This document shows positions 45,697-63,605 of a stretch of 64,000 nt of DNA, one piece after another (position 1 is the first letter of the stretch; every line of letters begins with the position of its first letter). The position numbers were made by a program, and so were the translations under genes. The DNA lies in NCBI GenBank assembly GCA_963736855.1, contig CAVTQK010000009.1:288001-352000 (forward strand), in the 5' to 3' direction. The stretch comes from an uncultured delta proteobacterium. Its GTDB lineage: Bacteria; Desulfobacterota; Desulfobacteria; Desulfobacterales; UBA2156. The notes under the pieces were generated by a model. The model did no database searches. It worked only from the letters and a program-made list of their open reading frames with translations, and was not told the DNA's origin.

Positions 45697-45833
45697 GTAA
45701 CCGGGTGATCGGGTCGCTTTTCTCCCTTTGGGTTTGAATACGATACCCCGGATGCTCTTCTTAGGGATTGCATTCCAGCCTTGAACAAGCGAAAATTTCG
45801 ACTTTGTCCGATGATTTGCTTTGGAAAACATCT

Positions 45834-46517
45834 ATGAAACAGATCCACAACCAGGAACAGGAACAGTTTAAGAAGCTCTTCCAGTCCGAAAATGTCGATC
45901 GCTTCGAAGACCGGCTCAAGGTTCTCGAGGTTTTTTTAAGCATGGAAACCCATATCACGGCAGATGACATGGTAACACTCCTGGAAAAAAAGGGACATCG
46001 ATTCGATCTGGAATTCGTGAAATCGACCCTTCACCTGATGTCCCGATATGGATTTGCCCGCGTCAACCGGTTTGACAACGGACGCCTTCTCTATGAACAT
46101 CGACACTTGGGGCACCACCACGACCACATGATCTGCACCAAGTGTAAAAAGATCATCGAGTTTGAAAACCCCTCATTGGAGGACCAGCAGATCCAGGTCG
46201 CCAAGGCCCACGGGTTTCATTTGCTCCAGCACAAGATGGAGCTTTACGGGATCTGTGCCGAATGCCTCAAGGAACGCCAGGCGCTCTTGCCGCTTTCTAT
46301 AGCCAAGCAAGGAGAACGGTTGATCATCCGGGAAGTTCACGGAGGCGGCACCGCCCGGGCCCGAATCCTTTCCATGGGGCTTCGGATAGGTGACGAGATC
46401 GAAGTGCTTTCCAACCAGGGTCAGGGCCAGATGGTCATCGCTGTGGACGTCAAACGCTTTATCATAGGCCGGGGAATGGCGGAAAAGATCATTTGCGAGC
46501 CTGTCCGCAAGAATTAA
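45834..46517 (+). CDS. Fur-family regulator fused to a C-terminal FeoA domain
   Basis: HHHDHMICTKC and YGICAEC Fur motifs; RILSMGLRIGDEIEV..IGRGMA FeoA motif. Confidence 0.9.
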   Translation: MKQIHNQEQEQFKKLFQSENVDRFEDRLKVLEVFLSMETHITADDMVTLLEKKGHRFDLEFVKSTLHLMSRYGFARVNRFDNGRLLYEHRHLGHHHDHMICTKCKKIIEFENPSLEDQQIQVAKAHGFHLLQHKMELYGICAECLKERQALLPLSIAKQGERLIIREVHGGGTARARILSMGLRIGDEIEVLSNQGQGQMVIAVDVKRFIIGRGMAEKIICEPVRKN

Positions 46518-48630: not shown

Positions 48631-49569
48631 ATGAATATCTATGTCTCAGGATCCCTGGCCTATGACCGGATCATGGATTTTCCCGGAAGGTTTTCCGATC
48701 ACATCCTGCCTGACAAGATCCATGTCCTCAACGTTTCTTTCAATGTCAACGGTCTTGCTGAAAAATTCGGAGGAACCGCCGGCAACATCGCCTACAACCT
48801 GGCCATGCTGGGAGAAAAACCCCTCATCCTGGCATCCGCGGGGAAAGATTTTTCGCACTACGAGGCGTGGCTGAGGGAAAACGGGCTCTCCCTGGAAGGG
48901 ATCCGGGTCATTCCGGAGGAATTCACGGCAGGCGCCTACATCACGACGGATCGAGGGGACAACCAGATCACCGGATTCAACCCCGGGGCCATGCGTTACC
49001 CATCCGGCTTTTCCATCCCGGATTCAGGTCAAGGCGCCGTCGGTATCCTTTCACCGGGAAACATCGAAGACATGCTGACCTACAGCCGGGAATTCAAGGC
49101 CAAACGCATCCCGTATATTTTCGATCCGGGGCAGACGACATCGGCTATGTCCGGAAGCCAGGTCCTCGATATTTTGACCGAGTGCGATATCTTCATCTCC
49201 AACGACTACGAACTGGAGATGGTTGTGCGGATGACAGGCATGACGAAATCCGATCTTTTGGCCCGGACGAAACGGGCCATCATCACCACCTTGGCGGAAA
49301 GCGGATCCCTGCTGACGACCCATGAAAAAGAGGTGCGGATTCCGGCGGTTCCTCCCCGACAGGTCGTGGATCCCACCGGCGCAGGGGATGCCTACCGTGC
49401 CGGATTGATCAAAGGGATCGTGACGGAAAAACCCCTCGAGGCGGCAGCATGCATGGGAGCCACCTCCGCCAGTTATGCTGTGGAGCACAAGGGAACCCAG
49501 GAGCACCGATTCACCCCGGAGGCTTTCTGGGCCCGTTATCATGCATTTTTTGGTAGAAAGGATTCTTGA
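48631..49569 (+). CDS. PfkB-family carbohydrate/nucleoside kinase (adenosine kinase-like)
   Basis: GSLAYD, GGTAGNIAY, FDPGQ, NDYE, DPTGAGDAYRAG. Confidence 0.9.
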   Translation: MNIYVSGSLAYDRIMDFPGRFSDHILPDKIHVLNVSFNVNGLAEKFGGTAGNIAYNLAMLGEKPLILASAGKDFSHYEAWLRENGLSLEGIRVIPEEFTAGAYITTDRGDNQITGFNPGAMRYPSGFSIPDSGQGAVGILSPGNIEDMLTYSREFKAKRIPYIFDPGQTTSAMSGSQVLDILTECDIFISNDYELEMVVRMTGMTKSDLLARTKRAIITTLAESGSLLTTHEKEVRIPAVPPRQVVDPTGAGDAYRAGLIKGIVTEKPLEAAACMGATSASYAVEHKGTQEHRFTPEAFWARYHAFFGRKDS

Positions 49570-49648
49570 CAACTGCCGAATCCTCCATTATTAAAAGCAT
49601 TTCGAGCGGATCAGGACGAACTTTTCGCCTGACGCGCGTATAAATTGA

Positions 49649-49724
49649 TCCCCGGTAGCTCAATCGGCAGAGCGGGTGGCTGTTAACCACTAGGTTCGAG
49701 GTTCAAGTCCTCGCCGGGGAGCCA
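49649..49724 (+). tRNA. tRNA-Asn (GTT)
   Basis: 76 nt; acceptor TCCCCGG/CCGGGGA, anticodon loop CTGTTAA, T-loop GTTCAAG, encoded 3' CCA. Confidence 0.97.
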
Positions 49725-49762
49725 AAATTCAACCCGCTGATTTCAGCGGTTCTTATTTAACG

Positions 49763-49797
49763 CAAGACCCCGTGGGTTGATCCCCTCGGGGTCTTGT
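49763..49797. terminator. Hairpin downstream of the tRNA (possible terminator)
   Basis: caagaccccg...cggggtcttg stem. Confidence 0.45.
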
Positions 49798-50116
49798 CGT
49801 TTCAGTCGTGTCCACGCCGACTTACGCCTGGCTGCGAACGCCGCCCGGGACGGTGCCATGGATATCGAGCGGTTCAAGGCGCGGCTCCGGCGCTGCCGTG
49901 GGCAGATCACCGCCGTCATCGCCTGCCGGACCGACCCGAGCACCGTCTTTGTGCTCAATTTGAGCTTCGACATAATTGCAGTACGCTTTTTTGGGGGCCG
50001 GACAACCTGTCAGCCAGGCACTCAAGGGTGGAAAACGGCATCTTTGCGGAGGCAAGTTTTATCGGGCTGCTTTTTGAGGCTCGCTGTTAGGATGGCACTT
50101 GAATAGGATAGGCGAT

Positions 50117-50947
50117 TCAGTGCCGGTTGATGGGCACTCGGCCGGGATCACCCACGAACGGAAGGATCAGAAGGCGAGGCAGGGAAAGCTTTTGCGGATC
50201 ACGGAATTGAGACAGACCGATCACCATATCATTGTGCCCCTTGTCGGGCTGGTCTTTGTAGGTACCAAAAAGCCGATCCCACCAGGGCAGGTTGAATCCG
50301 TAGTTGCTGTTGGTCTCGCGGATGATGACAGAGTGGTGGACCCGGTGCATGTCCGGCGTTACCACGAGCAGCCGGAGTATCCGGTCCATTTTTTCTGGGA
50401 TGCGGATGTTGCTGTGATTGAACATGGAGGTTGCGTTGAGGACGACTTCGAATATCAGCACGGCCAGCGGTGGCGCTCCGAGCGCGGCCACGGCCGACAG
50501 CTTGATGGCCATGGACACAATGATTTCGATAGGATGAAACCGCAGCCCAGTGGTCATATCGAAATCCAGATCCGCGTGATGCACCATATGCAGCCGCCAA
50601 AGCGTTGGAATGGCGTGATGCAAAACATGCTGCGCATAAACCGTAAGGTCCAGCGCAATCACACCCGCAACGACCTGCATCCATTCGGACATGGATGTGT
50701 GATTGAGCAACCCCCAGTTCTGTTCGGACGCGATATGAGCCAAACCGATAGGCAGAATGGGAAAAATCAAAACTACCGACAAGGGATTCAAAACCACGAT
50801 GGTCAAATTGGCGAACCATCGTCGGACCTTGGAGGTAAGCAAGCGTCTTCTTGGAGCAAGGATTTCCAAAACAGCGAGTACGACAAAAATAACCATAAAC
50901 GCGCCGAATCGAACCACTGTTTCATTTGTCAGGAAAATACATTCCAT
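50117..50947 (-). CDS. Sterol desaturase / fatty acid hydroxylase superfamily protein
   Basis: His boxes HVLHH, HMVHH, RFHP, FNHSN, HRVHH; NYG..WWDRLFGTY. Confidence 0.9.
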   Translation of the reverse strand: MECIFLTNETVVRFGAFMVIFVVLAVLEILAPRRRLLTSKVRRWFANLTIVVLNPLSVVLIFPILPIGLAHIASEQNWGLLNHTSMSEWMQVVAGVIALDLTVYAQHVLHHAIPTLWRLHMVHHADLDFDMTTGLRFHPIEIIVSMAIKLSAVAALGAPPLAVLIFEVVLNATSMFNHSNIRIPEKMDRILRLLVVTPDMHRVHHSVIIRETNSNYGFNLPWWDRLFGTYKDQPDKGHNDMVIGLSQFRDPQKLSLPRLLILPFVGDPGRVPINRH

Positions 50948-50987
50948 TGCCTTGTCTTCGATAAGAATGGTGTGATTGCTTCTTCGA

Positions 50988-51335
50988 TTAAAAAGCGATG
51001 ACCTTTTCCGCCCTGACCGTAAGATCCGTCAATTCAATCAGAGTGCCGCGCCGCGCGCCCTCGGCGATTTCTTCATCCTTCATTCCCCTCGCGTCCATGC
51101 ACGTGCCGCACAGGATGACCTCGCCCTTGCGAACAATCGGTTTCAACATGCGTTCTATATTGTAGTACCCTTGAGGGGTCTGCTGTCCGGTCTTGGCGCA
51201 TAGAACGGCATCGCCCAGCAAGAAAATGGACAGTTCCACAGTTTCACGAGCAACAAGCTGGTCTGCCAAACGCAAAGCATTGTAGCTGCGCTCACTGCCG
51301 TATGGTGGATCGTTTAGGATGATGAGCATTTTCAT
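50988..51335 (-). CDS. DsrE/DsrF-like (YchN-type) sulfur-relay protein
   Basis: PPYGSE..YNALRLA, FLLGDAV, CGTCMDARG; GGAGG RBS. Confidence 0.88.
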   Translation of the reverse strand: MKMLIILNDPPYGSERSYNALRLADQLVARETVELSIFLLGDAVLCAKTGQQTPQGYYNIERMLKPIVRKGEVILCGTCMDARGMKDEEIAEGARRGTLIELTDLTVRAEKVIAF

Positions 51336-51410
51336 TTTTTGTCCTCCAGAGTCGATAGAGATTTTCAACTTTCACAATCTATGTGGTCTGGCCTTACGCG
51401 AATGTGGTGG

Positions 51411-52109
51411 TTAAACCGTCGCAGTATCTTTTGACACCCGCGACACTTTCAGGAGCTTGGGAATGAAAAAGGAAAATATGAAAAGCGCAAGGGAGAGAAG
51501 GACCTTCCAGCTCAACAGCTCCTCCCAGCGGCCGGCGGCCCATATGTCCTTTATCGTTCCAACGAAAAAGGTAAATATGAAGGTGCCCACCATGATGCCC
51601 AGCGCCGTGCCGGAAAAGTAGTCCCAAAAACGCACCTTGGTCAGCCCCATGCCGAAATTCATTAGAGTAAACGGGAAATAGACCAGCCGCAAGTAAAGGA
51701 CCGTGGCAAAGCCGTTGCGCCCGATGGCGTCATCGTATCGTTTCAACCTGTTGCCGACGATGGAGGCGGCGAAATCCCGGCCCAAGTAACGCCCGATCAG
51801 AAAGGCGAGGCTGGCGCCGATCATGGCCGCAATCCAGACATATAGGAAGCCCCAATAGGGTCCGAAGATGGCGGCGCCCAAAGCCGTCAGAAGCGTGCCG
51901 GGAAGGAAAAGACACACACCGGCCGCGTAGATAAACACGAACGCCAATGGTGCCCATATTCCCGCGGCTTTCAAAAACAGCCCCAGTTGTTCGGCAGTGA
52001 GGTACTGTTTGGCTGGCGAAAAACGGACCAGGTAAATCGCCGCCACAACGAACAGGATCAGGATGGATACCTTCATCAGCGCGCTTTTTCTTTTTTCATC
52101 GGTTTGCAT
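51411..52109 (-). CDS. TVP38/TMEM64 (DedA superfamily) membrane protein
   Basis: LPGT, AIFG, GA.LAFLIGRYLGR, LRLVYFPF..NFG.GLT; start may be 52145. Confidence 0.88.
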   Translation of the reverse strand: MQTDEKRKSALMKVSILILFVVAAIYLVRFSPAKQYLTAEQLGLFLKAAGIWAPLAFVFIYAAGVCLFLPGTLLTALGAAIFGPYWGFLYVWIAAMIGASLAFLIGRYLGRDFAASIVGNRLKRYDDAIGRNGFATVLYLRLVYFPFTLMNFGMGLTKVRFWDYFSGTALGIMVGTFIFTFFVGTIKDIWAAGRWEELLSWKVLLSLALFIFSFFIPKLLKVSRVSKDTATV

Positions 52110-52232
52110 GACGAAACCTTGTTGACACACCTTCCGGATGTCCACGGTCTATTGGATTATTTGTAAGCTCTTCGTCCATGCCTCGGATATATCTATGTAT
52201 TATCGTATTTGCTGCAAATGATCGTTTCAGGA

Positions 52233-52502
52233 TCAGCTTATTGCCACATGGCGACGGATCGCGGCCTCGAAAGCTTCCCCGCTGATCGGACAGCCCTGGA
52301 TGATAATCTCATCGGCAAGCATCAAGGCCGGTGCGGCAGGCAGACCGGATGCAATGAATTCCGTCGTGCTGTAGTATTCCCTGGGCTTTGACAGTGTCTC
52401 GATTTCCAAAGCGTATTTTTTTCCCAACCTGGGAAGCATCTCCATGAAGCCGCCTCAGGTTTTACCCATCGGCTCGTTTAAAAAGACGCGCAGCTTAACC
52501 AT
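52233..52502 (-). CDS. tsoC: NEPxGxxU-motif selenoprotein, copy 2 (89 aa, Sec16 = TGA 52455-52457)
   Basis: MVKLRVFLNEPMGKT-U-GGFMEMLPRLGKKY...LPAAPAL; joins two ORF-track fragments in frame; SECIS-like TTCCCA-GGT-TGGGAA at 52421-52435. Confidence 0.85.
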
Positions 52503-52524
52503 TTTATTTCTCCGATCAGACGCA

Positions 52525-52845
52525 TTAAGGTTTCTTGAAAAGACGCCCCAAGATTCCTTTATGCGGTGGCTCGGGCTCGGCCAGACCCAACTGGCGGCAA
52601 ATGTGAACCTCCACCTCATGTTCGGACACATCGGCTCCTTCGACGACAACTTCATCGCCCACCATGACCGCCGGTGCCACGGGCAAATCTAGCTCGAAGT
52701 ACGCGTCGGTCTGATATTCCGCCTTGGCTTTTGAGGTGACGTCGATGTCGATGGCGTATTTTGCGCCCAACCTGGGCATCATTTGCTTGAAATGCTTTCA
52801 GGGTTTGCCGTTGGGCTCGTTAAGAAAAAACCGGACTTTGAGCAT
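52525..52845 (-). CDS. tsoC: NEPxGxxU-motif selenoprotein, copy 1 (106 aa, Sec16 = TGA 52798-52800)
   Basis: MLKVRFFLNEPNGKP-U-KHFKQMMPRLGAKY...LPVAPAV; GAGGAG RBS; SECIS-like TGCCCA-GGT-TGGGCG at 52764-52778. Confidence 0.88.
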
Positions 52846-52878
52846 GATCATCTCCTCTATTGTTTGGTTTCTCATGGA

Positions 52879-54648
52879 TCACTGTGCGGAAACGGACCTC
52901 TTTAATTCGGCCATGCGGCTCAGGAAGGGTTCGGGAGGCAAAAAATCCACCAGGCGCAGCTCGGTGCGTTCTTCACCCCGCGCATCCAGAAATACGATGG
53001 TGGGGACTCCCTTGACACCGTATTGCCTCAACAGTTCCTCATGAAATGGGTTTCCTCCCTGGGTCACATTGATTTTAACCATTATAAAATCCTTTTGCCG
53101 CGCTTGCCGGACTACCTCGGGGTGATGAAAGGTCACATTTTCAAGCTCCCGGCACGGCGTGCACCAGTCGGCGTAAAAGTCGATGATGACCGGTTTCTTC
53201 TGCGCGGCCGCCTGCCGCAGGGTTTGTTCCGAATAGGTGTGCCACTCGATGCTTGGTCCGCGCATGGCCCAGGTGGTCACCCAAAAAGTGGCCAGCACAA
53301 TGCAGGCTGTTCCCACGAAGGTCTTGAGCCAGGGAAAGGCCCTGAAACTCGCCTGGTTTTTATCGAGCCAGCCCAGGTGTAACCCGGCGGCGAAGGCGAC
53401 CAAAACCGGCACAACAATTTTAAGCGCCTGGGGCAGGATCGGCCGAATGAAGTATGCCGCCATGCCAACCAAGACCCAACCCATGAGTTTTCGCACCCAA
53501 ATCATCCATCCGCCGGCCCGTGGTAGTCGCTGTAATTGACCGGAAAAGATCGCCAGCACGAAAAGGGGAAGGCCCAATCCCAGGCTTAGGACGAAAAAAA
53601 TCAAAAAACCAAGCCACGGGTTTCCCATCCCGGCCACCCAGGTAAGGAGGCCCAGCACGAAGGGGCCGATGCAGGGCGCGGCCACAACGCCAAGGGTGAG
53701 ACCCATGAACAGACTGCCGAAGTACCCGGTGTAGGATTTGCCGGCGGCCTGGGTCAGGACGCCGGGTAGGCGCAGTTCCCAAAGGCCAAAAAGGCTGGTG
53801 GCGAATAGGACCAGGATGCCGGCCACCAAGGTCAACACGATGGGATTCTGCAGCATGGCCCCCATCAACCCACCAGTTAGTGCGGCCACCACCCCCAAGG
53901 TTGAGTTTGTCAGAGCTAAACCCATCAGGTAGCAAATCCCATGCAAAACAAGTTTGACTTGGCCGGGCCTGTCTTGGGCTGTGCGGCCTCCAAAAAAAGA
54001 GACCGTGATCGGAATCATCGGATAAACGCAAGGAGTCATGTTCAGGGCCAGTCCGCCGGCGAAAATGGCCAAAAGGGTCCAAAGCATGGACCAACCCTGG
54101 AGGGAGCGGTCGCCCATAGGTTCATTTGACGCTTCGCCAAGCGATGTTAGTCCCGCCGGACTACTCGCGATTGGTAAACCCTGTTCCTGCCATTTTGGGA
54201 ATCCGTAGGGGTCGCGGTACACATTTTTATAACCAAGCGATGCGGCCACCCGGGCCGCCGAGTCGCTGCGGACTCATGTCAGCCCCGCTCAGTAAAAGAC
54301 AAGTACGCGCTCCTTGTCCGGGCCTAAAAATGTATTCAGTTCCCCGGCCTTGCGCCAACGCGCCCACCAAGTAGGCTCCATTGAAAAATTGAGCGCCCCC
54401 TTGATATGCCCTGTGCGATATTCCCACTCCTGGCGGGTGTCGATCAGCAGCAGTTCGGAGGGCTTTTTTTCATATCTTTCGGATAGCGCTTCGGTGGTGA
54501 TGATCTTGTACCCGCCGGCGTCAGCCTCGGCCATAACATCTTCCCATGTGGCCTGCCCGGGTGCGATGGGGCGTTGCGCGTACCAGACAATACCAATGGT
54601 GAACAATACGGCCGCCAGCGCGAGAAAATATGATCTTTTTATTTTCAT
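52879..54648 (-). CDS. tsoB: Rhodanese / DsbD-membrane / thioredoxin fusion selenoprotein (589 aa, Sec120 and Sec125)
   Basis: ORF-track pieces 54289-54648 and 52879-54249 are in one frame through VFY-U-AGLT-U-VRS (TGA 54289-54291 and 54274-54276); IDTR..EY..GHIKGA; TPCVYP and APCIGP; WCTPC; SECIS-like hairpin 54236-54267. Confidence 0.9.
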
Positions 54649-54973
54649 GTCCGATCCCTGATCCCGCTACATTTTGCCAGATAGAAATGTATCCATTTGA
54701 GTTTTGTCGATAGCCACAATGCGAAAGGTGGCTTTTAACCGTCTCTTCTGAAAAGGAGTATTGATACTGATGGCAGTAATCCATGATCGTTCGGTACGCC
54801 GAAACAATCTTGCGGGTCATTTCAGCGCATGACTCCCTATCCTCGACGCATTTGTCCGGATGCCATTTGGTCACCAGTCTCCTGTATCTTGATTTGATCG
54901 ATGCCATGGTGGCGGTTTCCGGAAGCTCCAAAATTCTTTTTGCATCGATGATTTCCTGATATTTATGATCCAT
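54521..54973 (-). CDS. Small J-domain (DnaJ-like) protein; 3' end uncertain
   Basis: ILEL...IKSRYRRLVTKWHPDK...AY; frame runs 128 nt into tsoB. Confidence 0.8.
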   Translation of the reverse strand: MDHKYQEIIDAKRILELPETATMASIKSRYRRLVTKWHPDKCVEDRESCAEMTRKIVSAYRTIMDYCHQYQYSFSEETVKSHLSHCGYRQNSNGYISIWQNVAGSGIGHENKKIIFSRAGGRIVHHWYCLVRATPHRTRAGHMGRCYGRG

Positions 54974-55430
54974 CCTCGGCGATTCGTTTCCCTTCTCTCA
55001 AGAGTTTCGTGAGCAAAAATTTGGCCCCTCTGCGCGATAAACCAAGCCGTTCCGCCAATTCTTTATCGTTCAGAGTCCCATGCGTTTTTAAAAGCGTACG
55101 CACTTCCGCTTCCAGTTCCTCCAGCCAATCCTCAAACAGCACCAGCAGATCAGGATCGGCTATAGCCATTAGTTGTTTGGACTGCGCGACCTTGTCCACC
55201 AGGCTTTGGCACATCTGCGTTGGGTCGACACCTTCGCCCATGCACTCGGCCAGTCACAAGTGCACCATGCTGGACACCTTATCCCCCTCGGACTGATTGA
55301 TCAGGTTCAGAAGAAAACGCTCGCGGGCATTATCATCCAGGTCCGCAAGAAGACTTCCCGTGACAGTCGTGATTTTTGACAAGGCCTCTTCCGGAACCAT
55401 GCGGGCAATAATTTCAAAAAGCTCATCCAT
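54963..55430 (-). CDS. tsoA: LULAxC-motif selenoprotein (155 aa, Sec59 = TGA 55254-55256) with C-terminal HTH-like segment
   Basis: MDELFEIIAR...SSMVHL-U-LAECMGEGVDPTQMC...LAERLGLSRRGA; AGGAGG RBS; SECIS-like TGGG-CGA-AGGTG-TCG-A-CCCA at 55221-55240. Confidence 0.88.
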
Positions 55431-55453
55431 AGGAATTGGTTGCCTCCTATTGA

Positions 55454-55819
55454 TTAAAAAGTTCTTCGTGTGGATAAAAGGTCCGTCGCCACATCGTTTA
55501 AGATTTTCAAGACATTCAGAATTCTTTCATCTGCCAATTCATAATAAATGAATGGTCCCTCGCGTTCCACCTTGACCAGCAGAGAGTGCTTCAATTCCTT
55601 CAAATGGTGGGATACCAGCGGTTGGGACAGATCCAATTCCTCGACAATGGCGGATACTGACTTCTTGCTTCCGCTGATGAGCACCAAAATTCTTAGGCGG
55701 TTGCAGTCCGACAGACTCTTGGCCAGAAAGGCTGCTCTTTGAAGCTGGGCAATATCCGACTGGCATCGAGTCAGAAACCCTTCGTTTAGATCCGCTGAAT
55801 TCCGCATGTCTTTGTCCAT
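55454..55819 (-). CDS. ArsR/SmtB-family transcriptional regulator
   Basis: KSLSDCNRLRIL, LSQPLVSHHLKELK, VEREG..IYY; TAATG overlap with trxB. Confidence 0.92.
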   Translation of the reverse strand: MDKDMRNSADLNEGFLTRCQSDIAQLQRAAFLAKSLSDCNRLRILVLISGSKKSVSAIVEELDLSQPLVSHHLKELKHSLLVKVEREGPFIYYELADERILNVLKILNDVATDLLSTRRTF

Positions 55820-56781
55820 TATTCAACGACACTTCGGCATGTCTGATCACCTTTGCGGGTTTCAACATAGTGCGCGGCCGCCAAGGCCGCCGTACAACCA
55901 TCCGCGGCGGCAAGGACAATCTGGTTGGCGTATTTTTGCCGGAGGTCGCCCACGGCAAAAATGCCGGAAATGTCGGTTTCGCATTTTTCATCCGTGATGA
56001 CATATCCAGTACTGTTGACCTTGATCCCTGCGGGAACCAGTTGATTGTTCGGCGCAAAGCCGACAAAAATGAAAACGCCTTCGGTATCAAGATCCCGCTG
56101 ATCGCCGGTTTGCGTGTTTTTCAAGGAGATGTCACGGACGCCGTTGTCATCGCCATTGATTGTGGTGACGACCGTATTGTATATGATTTCAATCCGATGC
56201 TCGGCGAAAACGCGCTGCTGAAGGATGCGGCTGCCTCGAAAGGCCTCCCGTCGGTGAATGAGGTAAACCTTACGGGTGATTTTTGAAAGGTAAAGGGCAT
56301 CTTCCAGAGCTGTATCGCCGCCACCTACGACAGCAACGACTTTATCGCGGAAGAAGAAACCGTCGCAGGTCGCGCAATAAGAAACCCCCTTGCCGAAATT
56401 CTCGTTTTCGCCTGGTATGTTCAACTTTCGGGCGGTGCCGCCGGCTGCCAGAATGATCGCGTGGGCTTTTAAAAGAGTGCCGTCGGCAAGACGCACGGAA
56501 TGGTATTCAATTCCAGGTTCTGTCGCGATGGCCTCCTTTTCCAAAATCTCAAGGTTATACCGTTTGGCATGCTGCAGAAATTTATCGCAAAGATCGAAGC
56601 CGCCGATTTCAATAAAACCAGGATAATTCTCCACTTCCTTGGTGATCGCCACTTGCCCGCCAAAAACACCCCTTTCAATCAGCACGGTCTTCAGCGCCGC
56701 GCGCATGGCATAAATCCCAGCGGTTAAACCCGCGGGGCCTCCACCGACAATGATCAAATCGTAAAGCTGATTATCCGGCAT
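55819..56781 (-). CDS. trxB: Thioredoxin-disulfide reductase
   Basis: GGGPAG, VENYPG, GVSYCATCDG, GGGDTA, HRR..FR, FAVGD. Confidence 0.95.
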   Translation of the reverse strand: MPDNQLYDLIIVGGGPAGLTAGIYAMRAALKTVLIERGVFGGQVAITKEVENYPGFIEIGGFDLCDKFLQHAKRYNLEILEKEAIATEPGIEYHSVRLADGTLLKAHAIILAAGGTARKLNIPGENENFGKGVSYCATCDGFFFRDKVVAVVGGGDTALEDALYLSKITRKVYLIHRREAFRGSRILQQRVFAEHRIEIIYNTVVTTINGDDNGVRDISLKNTQTGDQRDLDTEGVFIFVGFAPNNQLVPAGIKVNSTGYVITDEKCETDISGIFAVGDLRQKYANQIVLAAADGCTAALAAAHYVETRKGDQTCRSVVE

Positions 56782-56830
56782 ATCGTCCTTCCTGTGCTTG
56801 ACCAATAAGAGGTGAACTGAATCAGTTAGC

Positions 56831-56877
56831 AAACAGCATATAGATATTTATTTATATGTTGTTTTAAATTTTGTCAA
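56831..56877 (-). promoter_or_regulatory. Promoter/operator of the selenoprotein operon: 16-2-16 inverted repeat plus -35 TTGACA
   Basis: aaacagcatatagata-tt-tatttatatgttgttt (2 mismatches) at 56831-56864; minus-strand TTGACA at 56872-56877. Confidence 0.7.
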
Positions 56878-57078
56878 TATTTTTCCGGATTCTGGTCGAC
56901 CCAGCTCGTAGGAAGCATGAAGAAGGTCTGCTTTTACAACAGCTCATTGAAAAGAACCACACGACGGTTGACATCCTTTCATTTGGCCGAAGACCTGGCT
57001 ACGGCCTGGTATCGCGACTATATCAAAACGCCGGTGAAGTGATTTGTACGCGTCTTGCCCGGATCAGCGCATTGGGGG

Positions 57079-58264
57079 CTATCCCTCGGAAGGGGCGGTC
57101 AGGGTCTCCCAGATATCTTCGACAAGGAGCGGATTGAAAATGCGGACGCCTCGGACGTTGAACCGCTGCTCGCCGTTATAGAGGACCGCGCCGGCCGTGA
57201 CCCGTTTGATTTCCAACGTCTGAAAACGCTCCAGTCCCTTGATGAAATCCACGGAAAACGTGCTGGCGGACTTGATCTCGACCGGCGTGAGCGCGCCCTT
57301 TTCCCTGATGAGCAGATCGACCTCGTTGCCGTGGGAGTCGCGGAAGAAATAGATCTCCGGCCTGATCCCCTTGTTGAGAGCGCCCTTCACGATGTCCGCA
57401 ATGATGAGGTTCTCATACAGATTGCCGCGCAAGGGATCGCGGGATGCCTGTTCCTGCCGTGTGGATGCCCAGCAGAAAGGCGGCGAGACCCACATCCGTG
57501 AAAAATATCTTGGGGGACTTGATCACCCGCTTTCGGACGTTCTCGAAAAACGGGGGCAGTTCGAACACGACATACGAGGCTTTCAGCACGGAGAGCCAGT
57601 TTCTGATCGTCGTGCTGGAAGCGCCCACGTCGTTGCCGAGCGAAGCGAGGTTGACGACCTGTCCCACCCGGCCGGCCAACAGGGTGAGGAATTTCTGAAA
57701 CTGCGACAGATCGCGCAACTGGATCAAGGCGCGCACATCGCGTTCGACGTAGGTTTGCAGGTAGCCGTTGAAAAACCTGCGCGGTTCGAGACCCTCTTCG
57801 TGAAGCCGCGGAAAACATCCGCGGCCGATCAGGTCGAAGGGGTCCCGTGCCGACTCATAACGGCGAAGTTCATGAAGGGAGAAAGGCCACAGGGTCAGCA
57901 TGGCGGTCCGGCCCGCCAGCGACTGGCTGATCGCCTCATGCAGTTGCGGCTGATGGCTGCCGGTCAGGATAAACCGCCCGCGTCTTCTGTTCTTGTCGAC
58001 CATTCCCTGGATGTAGGAAAGCAGAGCCGGGAGACGTTGCACCTCGTCCAGGATGCCGCCGCCTTCCATCTGGCCGAGGAATCCCCGCGGATCGGCTTCG
58101 GCCGCCATGCGGACATCCGGGTCTTCCAGGGAAAAGTACGGTTTGTCCGGAAACGTCATCCGGGCCAGCGTGGTCTTGCCCGATTGGCGGGGACCCAGGA
58201 TGGTCACCACGGGATACTCCGCGGCGGACCGGACCAGTTCTTCTGTGATGTCTCGAGTGATCAT
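57079..58264 (-). pseudogene. AAA+ ATPase with DUF4143 / PD-(D/E)xK-like C-terminus, +1 frameshift near 57453
   Basis: GPRQSGKTT, LDEVQ, LTGS, SLAGR, TYVERD, KIFFTDVG; second frame LYEN...FRD..EVD..PVEIK; span 1186 nt = 3n+1. Confidence 0.85.
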
Positions 58265-59202: not shown

Positions 59203-61332
59203 ATGCGCATGAATAGTGACACCTTCAAGGACATCGAGAAGCTCGAATCCGACCTCTGGGAGGCTGCCGACAACCTGCGGGCCAACTCCAAACTGACCTC
59301 CAGCGATTACTTCATGCCGGTGCTTGGTGTGATCTTTTTACGTCATGCGACCAATCGTTTCGACGCAGCCCACCGACAGATCAAGGCCGACCAGACCGGC
59401 GGCAAGATGCCCAAGCGAAAGGTCCTGCCGGCCGACTACATCGCGCGTCGAGCACTTTACCTTCCTGAACCGTCGCGCTACGACTGGATCATGCAGCAGG
59501 CCGCCGTCAGCGGCGTCGACCTACCCCGGATAGTCACCGAGGCCATGACCGCCATCGAGGCGTCGTTCGAGCCGCTCGTGGGAATCTTGCCCAAGGATTA
59601 CGGCATCTTCGAGCCCAAGGTGCTCGAAGACCTTATGCGCCTATTCAACAGCGAACGCATCCGGCAGGCCAACGGCGATGTCTTTGGCCGTATCTACGAA
59701 TACTTTCTGGCGAAGTTCTCGATCCAGAAGGCCCACGACAACGGCGAGTTCTTCACGCCGTCCTCGCTCGTGCAGACCATCGTCAACGTGATCGAGCCCG
59801 ACCATGGTACCGTGTTCGATCCGGCCTGTGGTTCGGGCGGAATGTTCGTACAGTCGAGCCACTTCATCGAGCACGAGGGCGGCGACACGGCCAAGAAGGT
59901 CGTCTTCTACGGCCAGGAGAAGAACCGTGACACCATCCGCATCGCCAAGATGAACCTCGCGGTGCATGGGCTGGAAGGCAAGATCGCCGAGGCCATCACC
60001 TACTACCAGGACGAGCACAACCTCGCGGGCCAGTGCGACTTCGTGATGGCCAACCCGCCCTTCAACGTGGATCTGGTGGACGCCGAGCGCATCAAGGGCG
60101 ACCCGCGCCTGCCCTTCGGCCTGCCGGGCGTGAACAAGCAGAAGAAGGTCGGAAACGGCAACTACCTCTGGATCTCCTATTTCTGGGGCTACCTCTCCCC
60201 AAAGGGCCGCGCCGGCTTTGTCATGTCCTCCCAGGCCTCCAGTGCCGGACATGGCGAAAAGGAGGTGCGCCGCAAGATCGTGGAGACGGGCGACGTGGAT
60301 GTGATGATCTCCATCCGCTCCAACTTCTTCTACACGCGGACGGTTCCGTGTGAGTTGTGGCACTTCGACCGGGCCAAGCCGCCCGAGCGCAGGGACAAGG
60401 TGCTGATGCTCGACGCTCGCAATGTCTTTCGCAAGGTCACGCGCAAGATCTACGATTTTTCGCCCGAACAAATGCACAACCTCGCGGCGATTGTCTGGCT
60501 CTATCGAGGGCAGCAGCAGCGCTTTCTCTCTCTGGTGAAGGATTACCTCAGCCGGGTCTGCGCCGAGAGCGCCGTCATCCCTGGGACTCTGACATCCTTC
60601 CAAAACACGCTCGCGGATTTACGCGACAGCTTCGATGCGCTGGCCAAGGCGACGGCGAAACACGCCGAGCTCGATGACGCGAAAAAACAGGCGCTCGCCG
60701 ATGCCGTGGCGGAACTGCGCGAAGCCGACGCACTATACAAGACCGACGCGCAAAAACTCCTCGTGAGTTTCGCAGCATTCGGCCGCAAGCATATCAAGAC
60801 GCTGCCCGGGAATAACGACGCCCAGCACGCGGCACGCAAAGCCTTCGACCCGCATGCCGAGGCGATTCGTGGCCTCGCCAAGCAGGTGGACCTGCTCTAC
60901 AAGCTCGCCGCGCGCGTGGCGGACCTGGGCGCGGAACTGGCAGCGGAAGATACGATCTCCGCCGTTTACGACCGGCGCGCCACGGGGCGGCTGGTCAAGC
61001 AGCTCGACTCGGAGCGGAAGGCCACGGTCGAGCAGTTGAAGCGTGCCGTCTATTTCCACCGGCAGGTGGTGTGGTTGCAGGACCGTTTCCCCAAGACCGA
61101 GCTGCAAGCCGTGCCCGGGCTGGTGAAACTGGTGGACCGCGCGGAGATTGAAGCCGCCGACTGGAGCCTTACCCCCGGCCGCTACGTGGGCGTGGCTCCG
61201 CCCGAGGAGGACGAGGACTTCGACTTCGAGCAGACCATCCGCGACATCCACACCGAGCTGGCAGAGCACAACAAGGAGGCGGCGGAATTAGCGGCGAAAA
61301 TCCAGGCAAACTTCGAGGGGTTGGGGATATGA
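59203..61332 (+). CDS. hsdM: Type I restriction-modification methyltransferase subunit
   Basis: LWEAADNLR, GRIYEYFL, GEFFTP, DPACGSGGMF, ANPPFN, WSLTPGRYVG. Confidence 0.93.
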   Translation: MRMNSDTFKDIEKLESDLWEAADNLRANSKLTSSDYFMPVLGVIFLRHATNRFDAAHRQIKADQTGGKMPKRKVLPADYIARRALYLPEPSRYDWIMQQAAVSGVDLPRIVTEAMTAIEASFEPLVGILPKDYGIFEPKVLEDLMRLFNSERIRQANGDVFGRIYEYFLAKFSIQKAHDNGEFFTPSSLVQTIVNVIEPDHGTVFDPACGSGGMFVQSSHFIEHEGGDTAKKVVFYGQEKNRDTIRIAKMNLAVHGLEGKIAEAITYYQDEHNLAGQCDFVMANPPFNVDLVDAERIKGDPRLPFGLPGVNKQKKVGNGNYLWISYFWGYLSPKGRAGFVMSSQASSAGHGEKEVRRKIVETGDVDVMISIRSNFFYTRTVPCELWHFDRAKPPERRDKVLMLDARNVFRKVTRKIYDFSPEQMHNLAAIVWLYRGQQQRFLSLVKDYLSRVCAESAVIPGTLTSFQNTLADLRDSFDALAKATAKHAELDDAKKQALADAVAELREADALYKTDAQKLLVSFAAFGRKHIKTLPGNNDAQHAARKAFDPHAEAIRGLAKQVDLLYKLAARVADLGAELAAEDTISAVYDRRATGRLVKQLDSERKATVEQLKRAVYFHRQVVWLQDRFPKTELQAVPGLVKLVDRAEIEAADWSLTPGRYVGVAPPEEDEDFDFEQTIRDIHTELAEHNKEAAELAAKIQANFEGLGI

Positions 61333-62474
61333 CAAAACCAAAGAATAGTGGATCAGACACCTCCGATGCACGCATGTCGCGTGGACGCATCCGCAATGGC
61401 GCATCTTTCCCTGCGCCGCCTTCCCGCGCGGGATTACCTGCGGGTTACGCTGCATTGCTGGAAAAGATCAAAGAGCGTATCAGCACTGAGCGGCTCAAGG
61501 CGGTCATGGCCGCCAACTCCGCCATGGTGCTGCTTTACTGGGACATCGGAAACATGATTCTGGACCGGCAACAAAAGGAAGGCTGGGGCGCGAAGGTGAT
61601 AGACCGCCTTTCCGCAGACCTTCGCCGGGCGTTTCCGGACATGACCGGCCTGTCGCCCCGGAATCTCAAGTACATGCGGAGCTTTGCCGCTGCCTGGCCG
61701 GATGCGGCAATTGTGCAAGAGGCGCTTGCACAAATCACCTGGTATCATAATCTGGCGTTGATGGAGAAACTGGATACTCCTGAAGATCGCCTTTGGTATG
61801 CTGCAAAGACGATCGAAAATGGCTGGTCCCGTAACATCCTCGCTTTGCAGATTGAATCCCGCGCTCACGAACGCCACGGAAAGGCCGTGAACAACTTTGC
61901 CGTCACCCTGCCGCCCGCCGATTCCGACATGGCCGCCCAGGTTTTCAAGGACCCATACCTCTTCGACTTTCTCGGCACCGCCGATCCGCGCCGCGAGCGG
62001 GAGGTCGAGCAGGCCCTGGTGGACCACATCCAGCGATTTTTGCTGGAACTCGGGGCGGGATTTGCCTTCGTCGGACGGCAAGTCCATCTGGAGATCGGCG
62101 ACCACGATTTCTACGTTGATCTGCTGTTCTACCACCTGAAGTTGCGCCGCTATGTAGTGGTGGAACTTAAAGCAGTGCCCTTTGACCCGGGCTTTGTCGG
62201 AAAACTGAACATGTATCTTTCCGCTGTGGACGATCTGTTGAAGCATCCGGATGACCAACCGGCCATCGGCCTGCTCCTCTGCCGCTCCAAGAATAAGCTC
62301 ATCGTCGAGTATGCCCTGCGCGGCTTCACCCGACCCATCGGCGTGGCCGAATGGGAGACCCGCCTGACCAAGAGCCTCCCCAAGGAACTCAGAGGCAGCC
62401 TGCCGACCGTGAAGGAGATCGAGGCGGAATTGGCGGTGAAAATTCAGGAGAACGTCGAGGAGTTTGGAGCATGA
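61329..62474 (+). CDS. YhcG / DUF1016 family PD-(D/E)xK nuclease-domain protein
   Basis: LYWDIG, GWGAKVIDRLS.DL, FKDPY.FDFL, LLELG.GFAFVGRQ, DLLFYH, VVVELK. Confidence 0.92.
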   Translation: MTKPKNSGSDTSDARMSRGRIRNGASFPAPPSRAGLPAGYAALLEKIKERISTERLKAVMAANSAMVLLYWDIGNMILDRQQKEGWGAKVIDRLSADLRRAFPDMTGLSPRNLKYMRSFAAAWPDAAIVQEALAQITWYHNLALMEKLDTPEDRLWYAAKTIENGWSRNILALQIESRAHERHGKAVNNFAVTLPPADSDMAAQVFKDPYLFDFLGTADPRREREVEQALVDHIQRFLLELGAGFAFVGRQVHLEIGDHDFYVDLLFYHLKLRRYVVVELKAVPFDPGFVGKLNMYLSAVDDLLKHPDDQPAIGLLLCRSKNKLIVEYALRGFTRPIGVAEWETRLTKSLPKELRGSLPTVKEIEAELAVKIQENVEEFGA

Positions 62475-63605
62475 GATGGCAACTTCATCAGTTGCAGGAC
62501 CTTTGTGCCGAAATGACATCTGGAGGCACTCCGTCTACCTCGCAGTCTCAATACTACGGAGGGGATATCCCGTGGCTACGAACGCAGGAGGTCAATTTCA
62601 ATCGAGTTACCGACACAGAGATCACGATCACCGAGGACGGCCTAATCAACTCAACCGCGAAGTGGATTCCAGAGAACAGCGTAATCATTGCGATGTATGG
62701 GAATTCTGCAGGGAGAGTGGCCACCAACCAGATTCCACTGACTACGAACCAGGCGTGCTGTAACTTGATCGTTGACCCTCGAAAGGCCGACTACCGGTTC
62801 ATCTATTATCGGTTAATGCTCGACTATGACGTCCTGCATCAAATGGCAAAAGGCTCGGCTCAGAACAACCTCAATGCAGGCCAGATCAAGGCTTACGCAA
62901 TCCAGACGCCGACAGTCGAAGTGCAAGAGCGCATCGCCGACATCCTCTCCGCCTACGACGACCTGATCGAGAACAACCGGCGGCGGATGGCGCTGTTGGA
63001 GGAGGCGGCGCGGCAGCTCTACCGCGAGTGGTTCGTCCGCCTGCGCTTCCCCGGCCACGAGCACACCCGCATCACCAACGGTGTGCCGGAGGGGTGGGAG
63101 CGACAGCCCTTCGAAACAGCTCTCGTCCTTCAGCGTGGTTTCGACCTGCCTATTCAAGAATAGAGAAGATGGCGATGTGCCGATTTATGGCTCAACCGGC
63201 ATTAACGGATTCCACAGCAAGGCAAAAGTTACAGGTCCAGGTGTGGTGACGGGACGAAGTGGCACGTTGGGTGAGGTGCATTACATACCGCGTGACTTTT
63301 GGCCCTTGAACACAGCACTGTGGGTTAAAGAGTTTAAGCGTGTCACACCGCTTTTCGCTATGTTTTTGATGCGTGAGATGGACCTTAGGCAGTATAATGG
63401 TGGGGTTTCGGTTCCGACTCTCGATCGAAAAACGGTGCATAAGGCGGAAGTGTTGATACCTTCGAAGCGGCTGGTGATATCCTTCGAGGAGTTTGCCTCG
63501 CCACTTTTTCATCAGATCGGTACATTGACCGCGCAAACCGAGAAACTCCGCGCGGCCCGCGATCTCTTGTTGCCGCGCCTGATGAGCGGGGAGATCGCCG
63601 TATGA
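62471..63605 (+). pseudogene. hsdS: Type I R-M specificity subunit, +1 frameshift near 63156 (in-frame TAG at 63161-63163)
   Basis: SGGTPS, NQAC, Q.RIADILSAYDDLIENNRRR, VPEGWE; second frame VPIYGSTG...RDLLLPRLMSGEI; span 1135 nt = 3n+1. Confidence 0.88.

Follow-up and report, generated by a model that had tools for sequence, protein, structure and literature searches.

Can a run of ten closely packed genes, four of them interrupted by in-frame TGA codons, encode a selenium-based redox system, and how much of such an arrangement is kept outside the genome in which it was found? The question is raised by positions 50117–56877 of a 64 000-nucleotide (nt) stretch of DNA from an uncultured delta proteobacterium (positions 288 001–352 000 of contig CAVTQK010000009.1, assembly GCA_963736855.1; the whole stretch is called the window below), where an earlier reading of the letters (the original prediction) proposed a ten-gene operon with four hidden selenoproteins. 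All ten open reading frames (ORFs) proposed there were found, in one orientation on the minus strand, which is the strand of every cluster feature described below. Product names for the ten ORFs were taken from profile searches with NCBIfam/TIGR and Pfam models against curated cut-offs. Three of the families had been named as the TsoA, TsoB and TsoC families of NCBIfam, and these assignments hold: tsoA (54963–55430; a LULAxC selenoprotein of 155 amino acids, aa) scores 215 bits with NF045695 (cut-off 170), tsoB (52879–54648; a rhodanese/DsbD fusion of 589 aa) 987.4 bits with NF045694 (cut-off 805) and tsoC (52525–52875; a NEPxGxxU selenoprotein of 116 aa, its likely start being the ATG at 52845, MLKVRFF...) 150.7 bits with NF045708 (cut-off 45). 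A second TsoC paralog of 89 aa, here called tsoC' (52233–52502), reaches 119.1 bits with the same model (cut-off 45). The regulator gene tsoR (55454–55819; ArsR/SmtB type), 23 nt upstream of tsoA, is also over its cut-off (NF045707; 155.6 bits, cut-off 115). Judged by these comparisons, the locus is best regarded as a genuine member, in an unusually large local form, of Tso (for 'three selenoprotein operon'), a system that has already been published.

Five in-frame TGA codons lie within four of the ten genes (tsoA, tsoB, tsoC and tsoC'), and with TGA read as selenocysteine (Sec; U in motifs) the four split ORFs become continuous proteins. The codons correspond to Sec59 of TsoA (55254–55256; the LULAxC motif reads HL-U-LAEC), to Sec120 and Sec125 of TsoB (54289–54291 and 54274–54276, both within one UxxxxU loop that reads Y-U-AGLT-U), to Sec26 of TsoC (52798–52800; NEPNGKPU) and to Sec16 of TsoC' (52455–52457; NEPMGKTU). 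The window's own genome (25 contigs, 3.91 Mb, completeness rated 100%) carries the Sec machinery, each component over its cut-off: selA (617 bits, cut-off 268), selB (381 bits, cut-off 242), selD (374 bits, cut-off 125) and a tRNA-Sec gene with anticodon TCA (75.8 bits, cut-off 47). The selD gene (G000:C15:107386–108306) itself holds one in-frame TGA; by its sequence, selenophosphate synthetase is probably also a selenoprotein in this genome.

The TGA codons are conserved in relatives. When one genome was scanned for each prokaryote species, 129 TsoB relatives were confirmed, and the best 80 of these 129 loci, nearly all from Desulfobacterales, Desulfobulbales and Syntrophobacterales, were used for the comparisons reported here. 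The ten window proteins were searched against the 80 loci with tblastn, and the codon aligned with each Sec was read from the high-scoring segment pairs (HSPs). TGA aligns with TGA at every Sec site: 60 of 60 covering HSPs for Sec59 of TsoA, 78 of 78 covering loci for Sec120 of TsoB (the site is uncovered in two loci), all 79 aligned sequences for the second TGA of TsoB (Sec125), and 89 of 89 covering HSPs for Sec26 of TsoC. Similar numbers were obtained from a second sample of 401 genomes, drawn evenly across the phylum: 26 genomes have TsoB matches that pass the cut-off (two TGA codons in 30 of 30 such matches), 30 have TsoA matches (one TGA in 34 of 34) and 31 have TsoC matches (one TGA in 40 of 42, the two without TGA being adjacent pieces in one genome, G161). 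No Cys form of TsoA, TsoB or TsoC was seen among the relatives examined (the 80 loci, the 401 genomes and the database matches inspected).

A protein-database search with TsoA gave 1492 relatives. Out of the 120 best, 14 are near full-length, and all 14 (P0007–P0037, metagenome proteins from JGI) have tryptophan at the Sec position; the others among the best are mostly fragments of 85–94 aa that hold the part after the TGA only. We considered the tryptophan-bearing proteins as non-Sec forms and rejected this, as the gene caller read TGA as Trp, apparently on short contigs. Two irregular relatives were observed as well: a tsoA with an in-frame TAA soon after the hairpin region discussed below (L042, 9990–10433, minus strand) and a tsoB in two overlapping pieces (G360:C14:444866–446519); these are possible pseudogenes or assembly errors.

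A hairpin with a GGT loop had been noted 3' of the TGA in each of the four genes, as in a bacterial Sec insertion sequence (SECIS), and such a hairpin was found in all four and is conserved in relatives (positions are counted from the U of UGA). The tsoA hairpin (55221–55240, +17 to +36) has 7 base pairs (bp) with a bulged A and an AGGUG loop; RNAalifold was run on 56 sequences here, and the stretch is nearly invariant at the nucleotide level. The tsoC hairpin (52764–52778, +23 to +37) has 5 bp and the loop AGGUU; 94.8% of its stem cells are paired across 89 sequences, and compensatory substitutions are found at the second pair (GC 65, CG 8, UA 7, GU 3). The tsoC' hairpin (52421–52435) reads UUCCC-AGGUU-GGGAA. 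tsoB has two hairpins. The first (54260–54275; 5 bp, loop CGCAGY, +17 to +32 from the first UGA) has two bases of the second UGA, G and A, in its 5' arm, and four of its five pairs are found independently by RNAalifold; the second, SECIS-like hairpin (54242–54258; 6 bp, loop CGKGU, which is CGGGU in the window) spans +34 to +50 from the first UGA and begins at +19 from the second. Over both tsoB hairpins 98.7% of cells are paired in 79 sequences, the pair 36–48 of the second hairpin varies between GC (68), GU (3), CG (1), UA (1) and UG (1), and RNAalifold largely predicts the two independently.

Synonymous variation in the hairpin regions of tsoA, tsoB and tsoC is concentrated in unpaired positions: the third-position entropy of paired vs unpaired columns is 0.36 vs 0.77 bits for tsoA, 0.25 vs 1.25 bits for tsoB and 0.59 vs 1.18 bits for tsoC. 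Under a strict definition (GGT loop, no bulge), a hairpin is found 3' of 43 out of 2185 TGA trinucleotides of the window (2.0%) and of four out of five candidate Sec codons; the tsoA hairpin misses this definition solely through its bulge. The hairpins at the Sec codons thus exceed chance.

Could the five TGA codons be ordinary stops, and the split ORFs pseudogene fragments or small separate genes? Two results lean this way. When the 60–70 nt 3' of each TGA were folded, the minimum free energy did not improve on that of shuffles (z from −0.1 to −1.0), a measure that is uninformative for such short hairpins, and an Rfam scan of 49500–57500 at E ≤ 10 gave no SECIS family, just a tRNA-Asn and chance matches. 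Curated RNA models have poor coverage of SECIS elements as short as the bacterial ones. Set against the ordinary-stop reading, the frame and the protein similarity run through every TGA in all relatives, the full-length curated models pass their cut-offs only when the TGA codons are read through, and the genome holds the Sec machinery together with conserved hairpins. We regard this reading as very nearly untenable: the comparative data on these sequences effectively refute it already. Since a complete Sec machinery, conserved SECIS-like hairpins and a TGA kept in essentially all relatives coincide, it is highly probable that all five UGA codons are decoded as selenocysteine.

What could such proteins do? 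TsoB starts with a hydrophobic helix that follows K/R residues (a signal or anchor helix), continues with a rhodanese domain (residues 52–155; PF00581, 50.8 bits) and a DsbD transmembrane domain (189–405; PF02683, DsbD_TM, 140.7 bits), and has a thioredoxin-like domain (468–575; PF13899, Thioredoxin_7, 69 bits) in its later part. All of the 68 full-length sequences share the six redox residues without exception, and these form three pairs: U120-x4-U125 in the rhodanese domain, C207/C326 in the membrane domain, and C496/C499 in the WCTPC motif. The DsbD membrane Cys pair and the WCTPC domain that had been proposed for TsoB are among them. The DsbD model NF001419 reaches 258.6 bits on TsoB, under its cut-off of 330, and aligns with profile positions 163–572 only; because the alignment begins at position 163 and the score stays below cut-off, TsoB is, by its sequence, a DsbD with a U-x4-U rhodanese in place of the alpha domain, and not a DsbD equivalog. 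We also observed stand-alone rhodanese ORFs of ∼160 aa with two or three TGA codons that match the N-terminal part of the TsoB model only (G051:C23:38466–38939, G373:C26:13491–14006, G397:C53:6958–7428 and G325:C208:89–547), and the double-Sec rhodanese therefore also exists unfused.

TsoC is predicted to have a thioredoxin fold: a structure model based on an alignment of 75 sequences (mean predicted local distance difference test, pLDDT, 85.4; predicted template modelling score, pTM, 0.75) is arranged beta1-alpha1-beta2-beta3-beta4-alpha3, and its top matches are thioredoxins. Invariant residues of the family are F17, N19, P21, G23, U26, P65, A67, P68, A69, M71 and G80. In the model G23-K-P-U26 is positioned at the start of helix 1, and for this reason would sit in place of the CxxC of thioredoxin with Sec at the second position, while A67-P68-A69 would be the cis-proline loop. 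There is no second invariant Cys across the 75 sequences (the motif is G-x-x-U), and with a single redox residue TsoC alone therefore cannot deliver two electrons as thioredoxin does. Of the thioredoxin-like role foreseen for TsoC and TsoC', the fold is kept and the use as a plain thioredoxin substitute is not. TsoC has no Pfam match at E ≤ 0.01, thioredoxin models included. It ends in a conserved basic tail (…PEPE..KKG.L.RLF.K) that TsoC' lacks and that could be a membrane- or TsoB-docking element.

The third family, TsoA, has three invariant residues, U59, C63 and C74. Its model is all-helical (pLDDT 76, pTM 0.41), with the stretch around U59/C63/C74 poorly defined, and gave no whole-fold match; sequence-profile searches of PDB with the TsoA and TsoC alignments gave nothing relevant. 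At the C-terminus of TsoA the Pfam helix-turn-helix (HTH) models fall just under threshold, and some TsoA fragments in the database are automatically annotated as HTH or MarR proteins. An HTH-like tail on the helical TsoA is a lead, not a finding.

How might the locus be controlled? A −35-like TTGACA (56872–56877) of a putative tso promoter lies 15–17 nt upstream of TATAAA/TAAATA, which is within a 22-bp palindrome, CATATAAATAAATATCTATATG (56837–56858; CATATAAAT-N4-ATcTATATG), a putative TsoR operator over the A/T-rich −10 element (56849–56856). A consensus promoter scan skipped this promoter, which has no T at position 6 of its −10. With the pattern CATATAAAT-N4-ATTTATATG and up to three mismatches, the palindrome is a single site in the window, with no match in any of 100 shuffles; the whole genome has two sites vs none for the reversed control pattern. 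We judged the second genome site (C21:288294–288315, three mismatches) to be unrelated, as it is AT-rich and beside a broken transposase and a methyltransferase-like gene. Among related loci, 44 out of 58 have the palindrome within 1600 nt upstream of tsoR (usually 50–350 nt), and these 44 sites are nearly all of the 49 plus-strand matches in 1.28 Mb of locus sequence. In four loci where trxB precedes tsoR (L020, L046, L047 and L085), the palindrome is ∼1120–1230 nt upstream of tsoR, i.e. upstream of trxB. From the position of these sites the palindrome is likely the TsoR operator, and the trxB gene of the window would lie inside the TsoR-controlled unit.

TsoR itself is a winged-helix protein of the ArsR family (PF01022, HTH_5, 41.6 bits; NF033788, 72.4 bits). 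It had been proposed as a sensor of sulfane sulfur or metals, which is doubtful: its cysteines are poorly kept (C19 in nine out of 22 relatives and C39 in none of 59), making thiol-based sensing doubtful, and the alignment of TsoR relatives has no conserved Cys/His ligand set, with a conserved His only in the recognition helix.

Six genes other than tsoR, tsoA, tsoB and tsoC make up the rest of the cluster, whose order from the promoter is trxB-tsoR-tsoA-J-tsoB-tsoC-tsoC'-VTT-dsrE-FAH, with intergenic gaps of −128 to +87 nt. trxB (55819–56782) encodes a thioredoxin-disulfide reductase with a CATC redox motif (TIGR01292, 359.2 bits, cut-off 343.45; also a Pyr_redox_2 match), and its stop overlaps the start of tsoR. 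The trxB ORF is open to 56832 and the start of the longest ORF falls within the promoter region; the gene probably starts at the ATG at 56782, which is preceded by AGGAAGGA. An ORF for a J-domain protein with an HPD motif (54521–54973; PF00226, 43.7 bits, cut-off 27.8) overlaps tsoA by 11 nt and, in another frame, tsoB by 128 nt (54521–54648). Downstream of tsoC' are genes for a VTT/DedA (TVP38) family membrane protein (51411–52145; PF09335, 88.6 bits, cut-off 33.9), a DsrE/DsrF-like protein in Cys form (50988–51368; ILCGTCM; PF02635, 72.3 bits, cut-off 22.7) and a membrane protein of the fatty-acid hydroxylase/sterol desaturase superfamily (FA_hydroxylase; 50117–50947; PF04116, 98.4 bits, cut-off 31).

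The neighbors of tsoB in related loci show which of these genes belong together (counts are for loci with enough flank). tsoR is upstream of tsoB in 60 out of 71 loci and tsoA in 57 out of 71, and at least one tsoC is downstream in 70 out of 74. The other genes are less frequent: a second tsoC is found in 15 and an FA_hydroxylase gene in 21 out of 60 loci, VTT/DedA follows tsoC in 23 out of 60, and DsrE is found in one out of 60 (three out of 80 without the flank filter). J-domain HSPs are found in six out of 63 loci; true J-domain relatives are limited to L020, L025 and L029, with a partial copy in L077, and the remaining HSPs are off-frame echoes of the 5' end of tsoB. The J-domain relatives diverge from the window copy after about residue 82, and the L020 copy seems to be ∼40 residues shorter. 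The relatives share a ...EEWWFDRFGDDPLW tail that the window copy does not have, and the C-terminal extension of the window's J-domain ORF may not be real. In the 401-genome sample TsoA, TsoB and TsoC co-occur in 21 genomes, and among the 26 genomes with TsoB, 23 have TsoA and 22 have TsoC. Clustering of the ORFs of the 80 loci gave no further conserved partner; sporadic neighbors include sigma-54 regulators, ABC ATPases, histidine kinases, NrfA/NrfH and ArsM-type genes. These comparisons indicate that the conserved unit is tsoR-tsoA-tsoB-tsoC only, and that the ten-gene arrangement is a local elaboration of this four-gene core.

That all ten genes form one fixed pathway, from NADPH through TrxB and TsoC/TsoC' to TsoB, with DsrE as sulfur carrier and the ArsR protein as sensor, is improbable in our view. 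Such a pathway would be suited by the shared orientation of the genes, by the short gaps or overlaps between them, by a putative operator that precedes trxB, and by the lack of a strong terminator inside the cluster (the minus-strand terminator-like sites there amount to one weak site, within tsoB, and the next is 368 nt past the last gene, beside a tRNA-Asn gene). Yet all ten genes together are found in 0 out of 52 loci and the accessory genes each in 2–38% of loci, and TsoC has no second redox residue and TsoR no conserved cysteines. As a conserved unit, the ten-gene operon of the original prediction does not survive these counts (trxB on either side of tsoB in nine out of 52 loci, DsrE in one out of 60, a true J-domain gene in three or four).

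What remains is a four-gene core, and for this we propose the following mechanism. In DsbD, electrons pass from the cytoplasm via the membrane pair to the periplasmic domains. By analogy, there are strong grounds to expect that the membrane cysteines C207/C326 of TsoB would take reducing equivalents from the cytoplasm, that the membrane pair would pass them to a periplasmic thioredoxin-like WCTPC domain, and that this domain would reduce the N-terminal periplasmic rhodanese, in which U120-x4-U125 would act as a diselenide/diselenol couple. Other steps are put forward more tentatively: cytoplasmic TsoC and TsoA may feed or gate the TsoB relay (no other gene is linked to tsoB as tightly as tsoC), NADPH-dependent TrxB may have been recruited into the operon in the source genome, and the reduced Sec-rhodanese may have as its substrate a chalcogen or metalloid of the periplasm (polysulfide/sulfane sulfur, selenite or arsenic species) or oxidised periplasmic proteins. 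The ArsR-type TsoR probably represses from the palindrome over the −10 of the sigma-70-like promoter. In short, Tso would be a DsbD-type transmembrane relay that ends in a periplasmic diselenol rhodanese, with TsoC and probably TsoA as dedicated components on the cytoplasmic side, TsoR as repressor at the palindrome and TrxB as a locally recruited link to NADPH, an account that we consider moderately likely to be correct. From the pathway foreseen at the outset (NADPH to TrxB, TsoC, TsoB and rhodanese), it keeps the TsoB parts and drops TsoC as a plain thioredoxin.

Several observations weigh against this account. With one redox residue in TsoC, a two-electron transfer to the membrane disulfide of TsoB needs a second partner. 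trxB is linked in just nine out of 52 loci. TsoA is found without TsoB in some genomes of the sample (e.g. G278, G329 and G220), and therefore may have a TsoB-independent role. In tsoB, two UGA codons only 15 nt apart are followed by one hairpin with a GGU-type loop. The periplasmic location of the TsoB rhodanese and WCTPC domains, finally, is proposed by analogy with DsbD and from the N-terminal hydrophobic helix.

The relay might carry atoms instead of electrons. Rhodanese domains are classical persulfide carriers, and the Sec-rhodanese could hold sulfane sulfur or selenium as perselenide or selenotrisulfide, with TsoC, TsoA and DsrE as cytoplasmic carriers and VTT/DedA moving selenium species across the membrane. 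The DsrE gene of the window, the Sec-containing DsrE paralog beside the TsoX gene described below and the VTT/DedA genes in 23 out of 60 loci are in line with such trafficking, and a review ties DedA to selenite transport. DsrE is linked in just one out of 60 loci, though, and the invariant DsbD-type Cys pairs of TsoB are the mark of a protein that transfers electrons, not atoms; taken as the whole explanation, trafficking seems rather unlikely to us. The two are not exclusive, as the electron relay could keep a carrier reduced.

A module for defence against, or transformation of, metalloids (arsenic, selenium or tellurium) was also considered, in which the rhodanese-fold domain reduces arsenate or selenite under control of an ArsR-family repressor. 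Acr2/Cdc25-type arsenate reductases share the rhodanese fold, and TsoR belongs to the ArsR/SmtB family. In eight out of 80 loci the N-terminal part of an ArsM-type selenoprotein directly follows tsoC (256–312 bits; NF041536 311 bits, NF041537 293 bits and NF047649 256 bits); these genes end at their TGA in standard ORF calling (e.g. L076:12221–12829). Counting against such a module, TsoR has no conserved Cys/His ligand set, no arsB, acr3 or arsC is among the recurrent neighbors in related loci, the window has no ArsM-like gene near the cluster, and the TsoB loop is U-x6-R vs C-x5-R in Acr2, and we hold it to be a shade less likely even than trafficking. What trafficking and metalloid handling address is mainly the substrate and less the relay; the DsbD-type electron relay is compatible with both.

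A bolder form of the relay can be drawn from the same observations. Tso could be an obligately selenium-based transmembrane redox system whose donor is not thioredoxin but the TsoC mono-selenol together with a TsoA selenenylsulfide couple; the conduit would power the diselenol rhodanese acting on a chalcogen or metalloid, the HTH-like tail of TsoA would report the redox or selenium state to a TsoR that has no sensor of its own, and the tandem tsoB hairpins would be a specialised SECIS for two Sec codons 15 nt apart. We think this chain of proposals rather speculative and on the whole unlikely; if it were true, TsoA would be the selenoprotein component of a transcriptional switch.

Whatever the substrate, systems that encode three or four selenoproteins side by side are very few, and Tso is among them. 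A recent review states that nearly all selenoenzymes have commoner Cys homologs (PMC13188914). Because no Cys version was seen in any relative examined, which is unusual against that statement, the Tso families suggest chemistry beyond that of cysteine. The architecture makes the system directly testable: a diselenol-rhodanese relay, a single-Sec partner with a thioredoxin fold, and a defined 22-bp putative operator. Cultivable carriers are available among the related loci, namely Desulfoprunum benzoelyticum DSM 28570 (L063), Desulforhopalus sp. IMCC35007 (L092) and Desulfobulbus sp. Tol-SR (L049). There is also a lesson for annotation, as gene calling that takes no account of Sec breaks up four genes here at five TGA codons, and some metagenome calls give Trp instead.

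The surroundings of the cluster were inspected as well. Directly upstream of the tso promoter, a gene for an AAA_14/DUF4143 ATPase (57079–58264, minus strand) is present as two overlapping ORFs (57413–58264 and 57079–57495) and is probably a frameshifted pseudogene. Further on, a type I restriction-modification cluster (59203–63163, plus strand) consists of HsdM (59203–61332), a DUF1016/YhcG PDDEXK nuclease (61329–62474) and HsdS (62351–63163), and the tRNA-Asn gene (49649–49724) is on the opposite flank; with these flanks the tso cluster therefore lies in a variable-looking region. The G+C content of the cluster (0.49–0.57) is no different from its flanks, and composition gives no sign of recent transfer. 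A single ORF at 45768–46517 (plus strand) joins a Fur domain and a FeoA domain.

How does the locus compare with what is already known? A review of 2026 lists TsoA, TsoB, TsoC, TsoX and TsoY with NCBIfam accessions and credits Tso to Haft & Tolstoy 2025 (mSystems 10:e0141724), and the part of the review dealing with Tso gives no function (PMC13188914). The selenoproteins are thus not hidden, as Tso is already published and catalogued. Literature searches by Tso name, by motif and by Desulfomicrobium locus tag (Dbac_1934–1938) gave nothing beyond this review, the primary paper being outside the search. A TsoX gene (NF045809; 143.6 bits, cut-off 52) is found in the source genome, unlinked and on another contig (G000:C21, about 764.3–764.9 kb; L014 1495–1752), with one in-frame TGA in the motif HSGNPNU-MSC; directly after it is a DsrE-like ORF with an in-frame TGA (YVUGVCM; L014 1752–2072). 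The DsrE protein of the window shares 31% identity with this Sec-containing paralog (E 1e-13) and has Cys at the aligned Sec position. TsoY (NF047643) gave no match in the source genome in a weak search, in which the control likewise had no match anywhere.

Compared with the DsbD (DipZ) of E. coli type, TsoB shares a transmembrane domain with two conserved Cys, a C-terminal thioredoxin-like CxxC domain and the presence of three redox pairs in one polypeptide; in contrast to the N-terminal immunoglobulin-like alpha domain of DsbD, it has a rhodanese with a two-Sec pair. It shares PF00581 with periplasmic rhodaneses (PspE and Sud) and with Sec rhodaneses (NF041203, 'LYCAU', to which it has a weak match at E 1e-7), but differs from all of these in the fusion to a DsbD-like relay and in having two Sec in the active-site loop. 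TsoC differs from thioredoxin and from SelW-like (Rdx) proteins in having GxxU, not CxxC or CxxU, and in the lack of a Pfam thioredoxin match. The bacterial SECIS of the fdhF type is, like the Tso hairpins, an in-coding hairpin shortly 3' of the UGA with GGU in the apical loop; tsoB departs from it with two UGA codons 15 nt apart before one hairpin with a GGU/GUGU loop, and with a second conserved hairpin that overlaps the second UGA. Like Tso as catalogued, the window locus has the four core families, the motifs LULAxC, UxxxxU and NEPxGxxU, the order tsoR-tsoA-tsoB-tsoC and TGA at its Sec sites; unlike it, the locus has trxB between the promoter/operator and tsoR, a J-domain gene between tsoA and tsoB, and a second tsoC followed by VTT/DedA, DsrE and fatty-acid hydroxylase genes. 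It is a new, enlarged member of a system that has already been catalogued.

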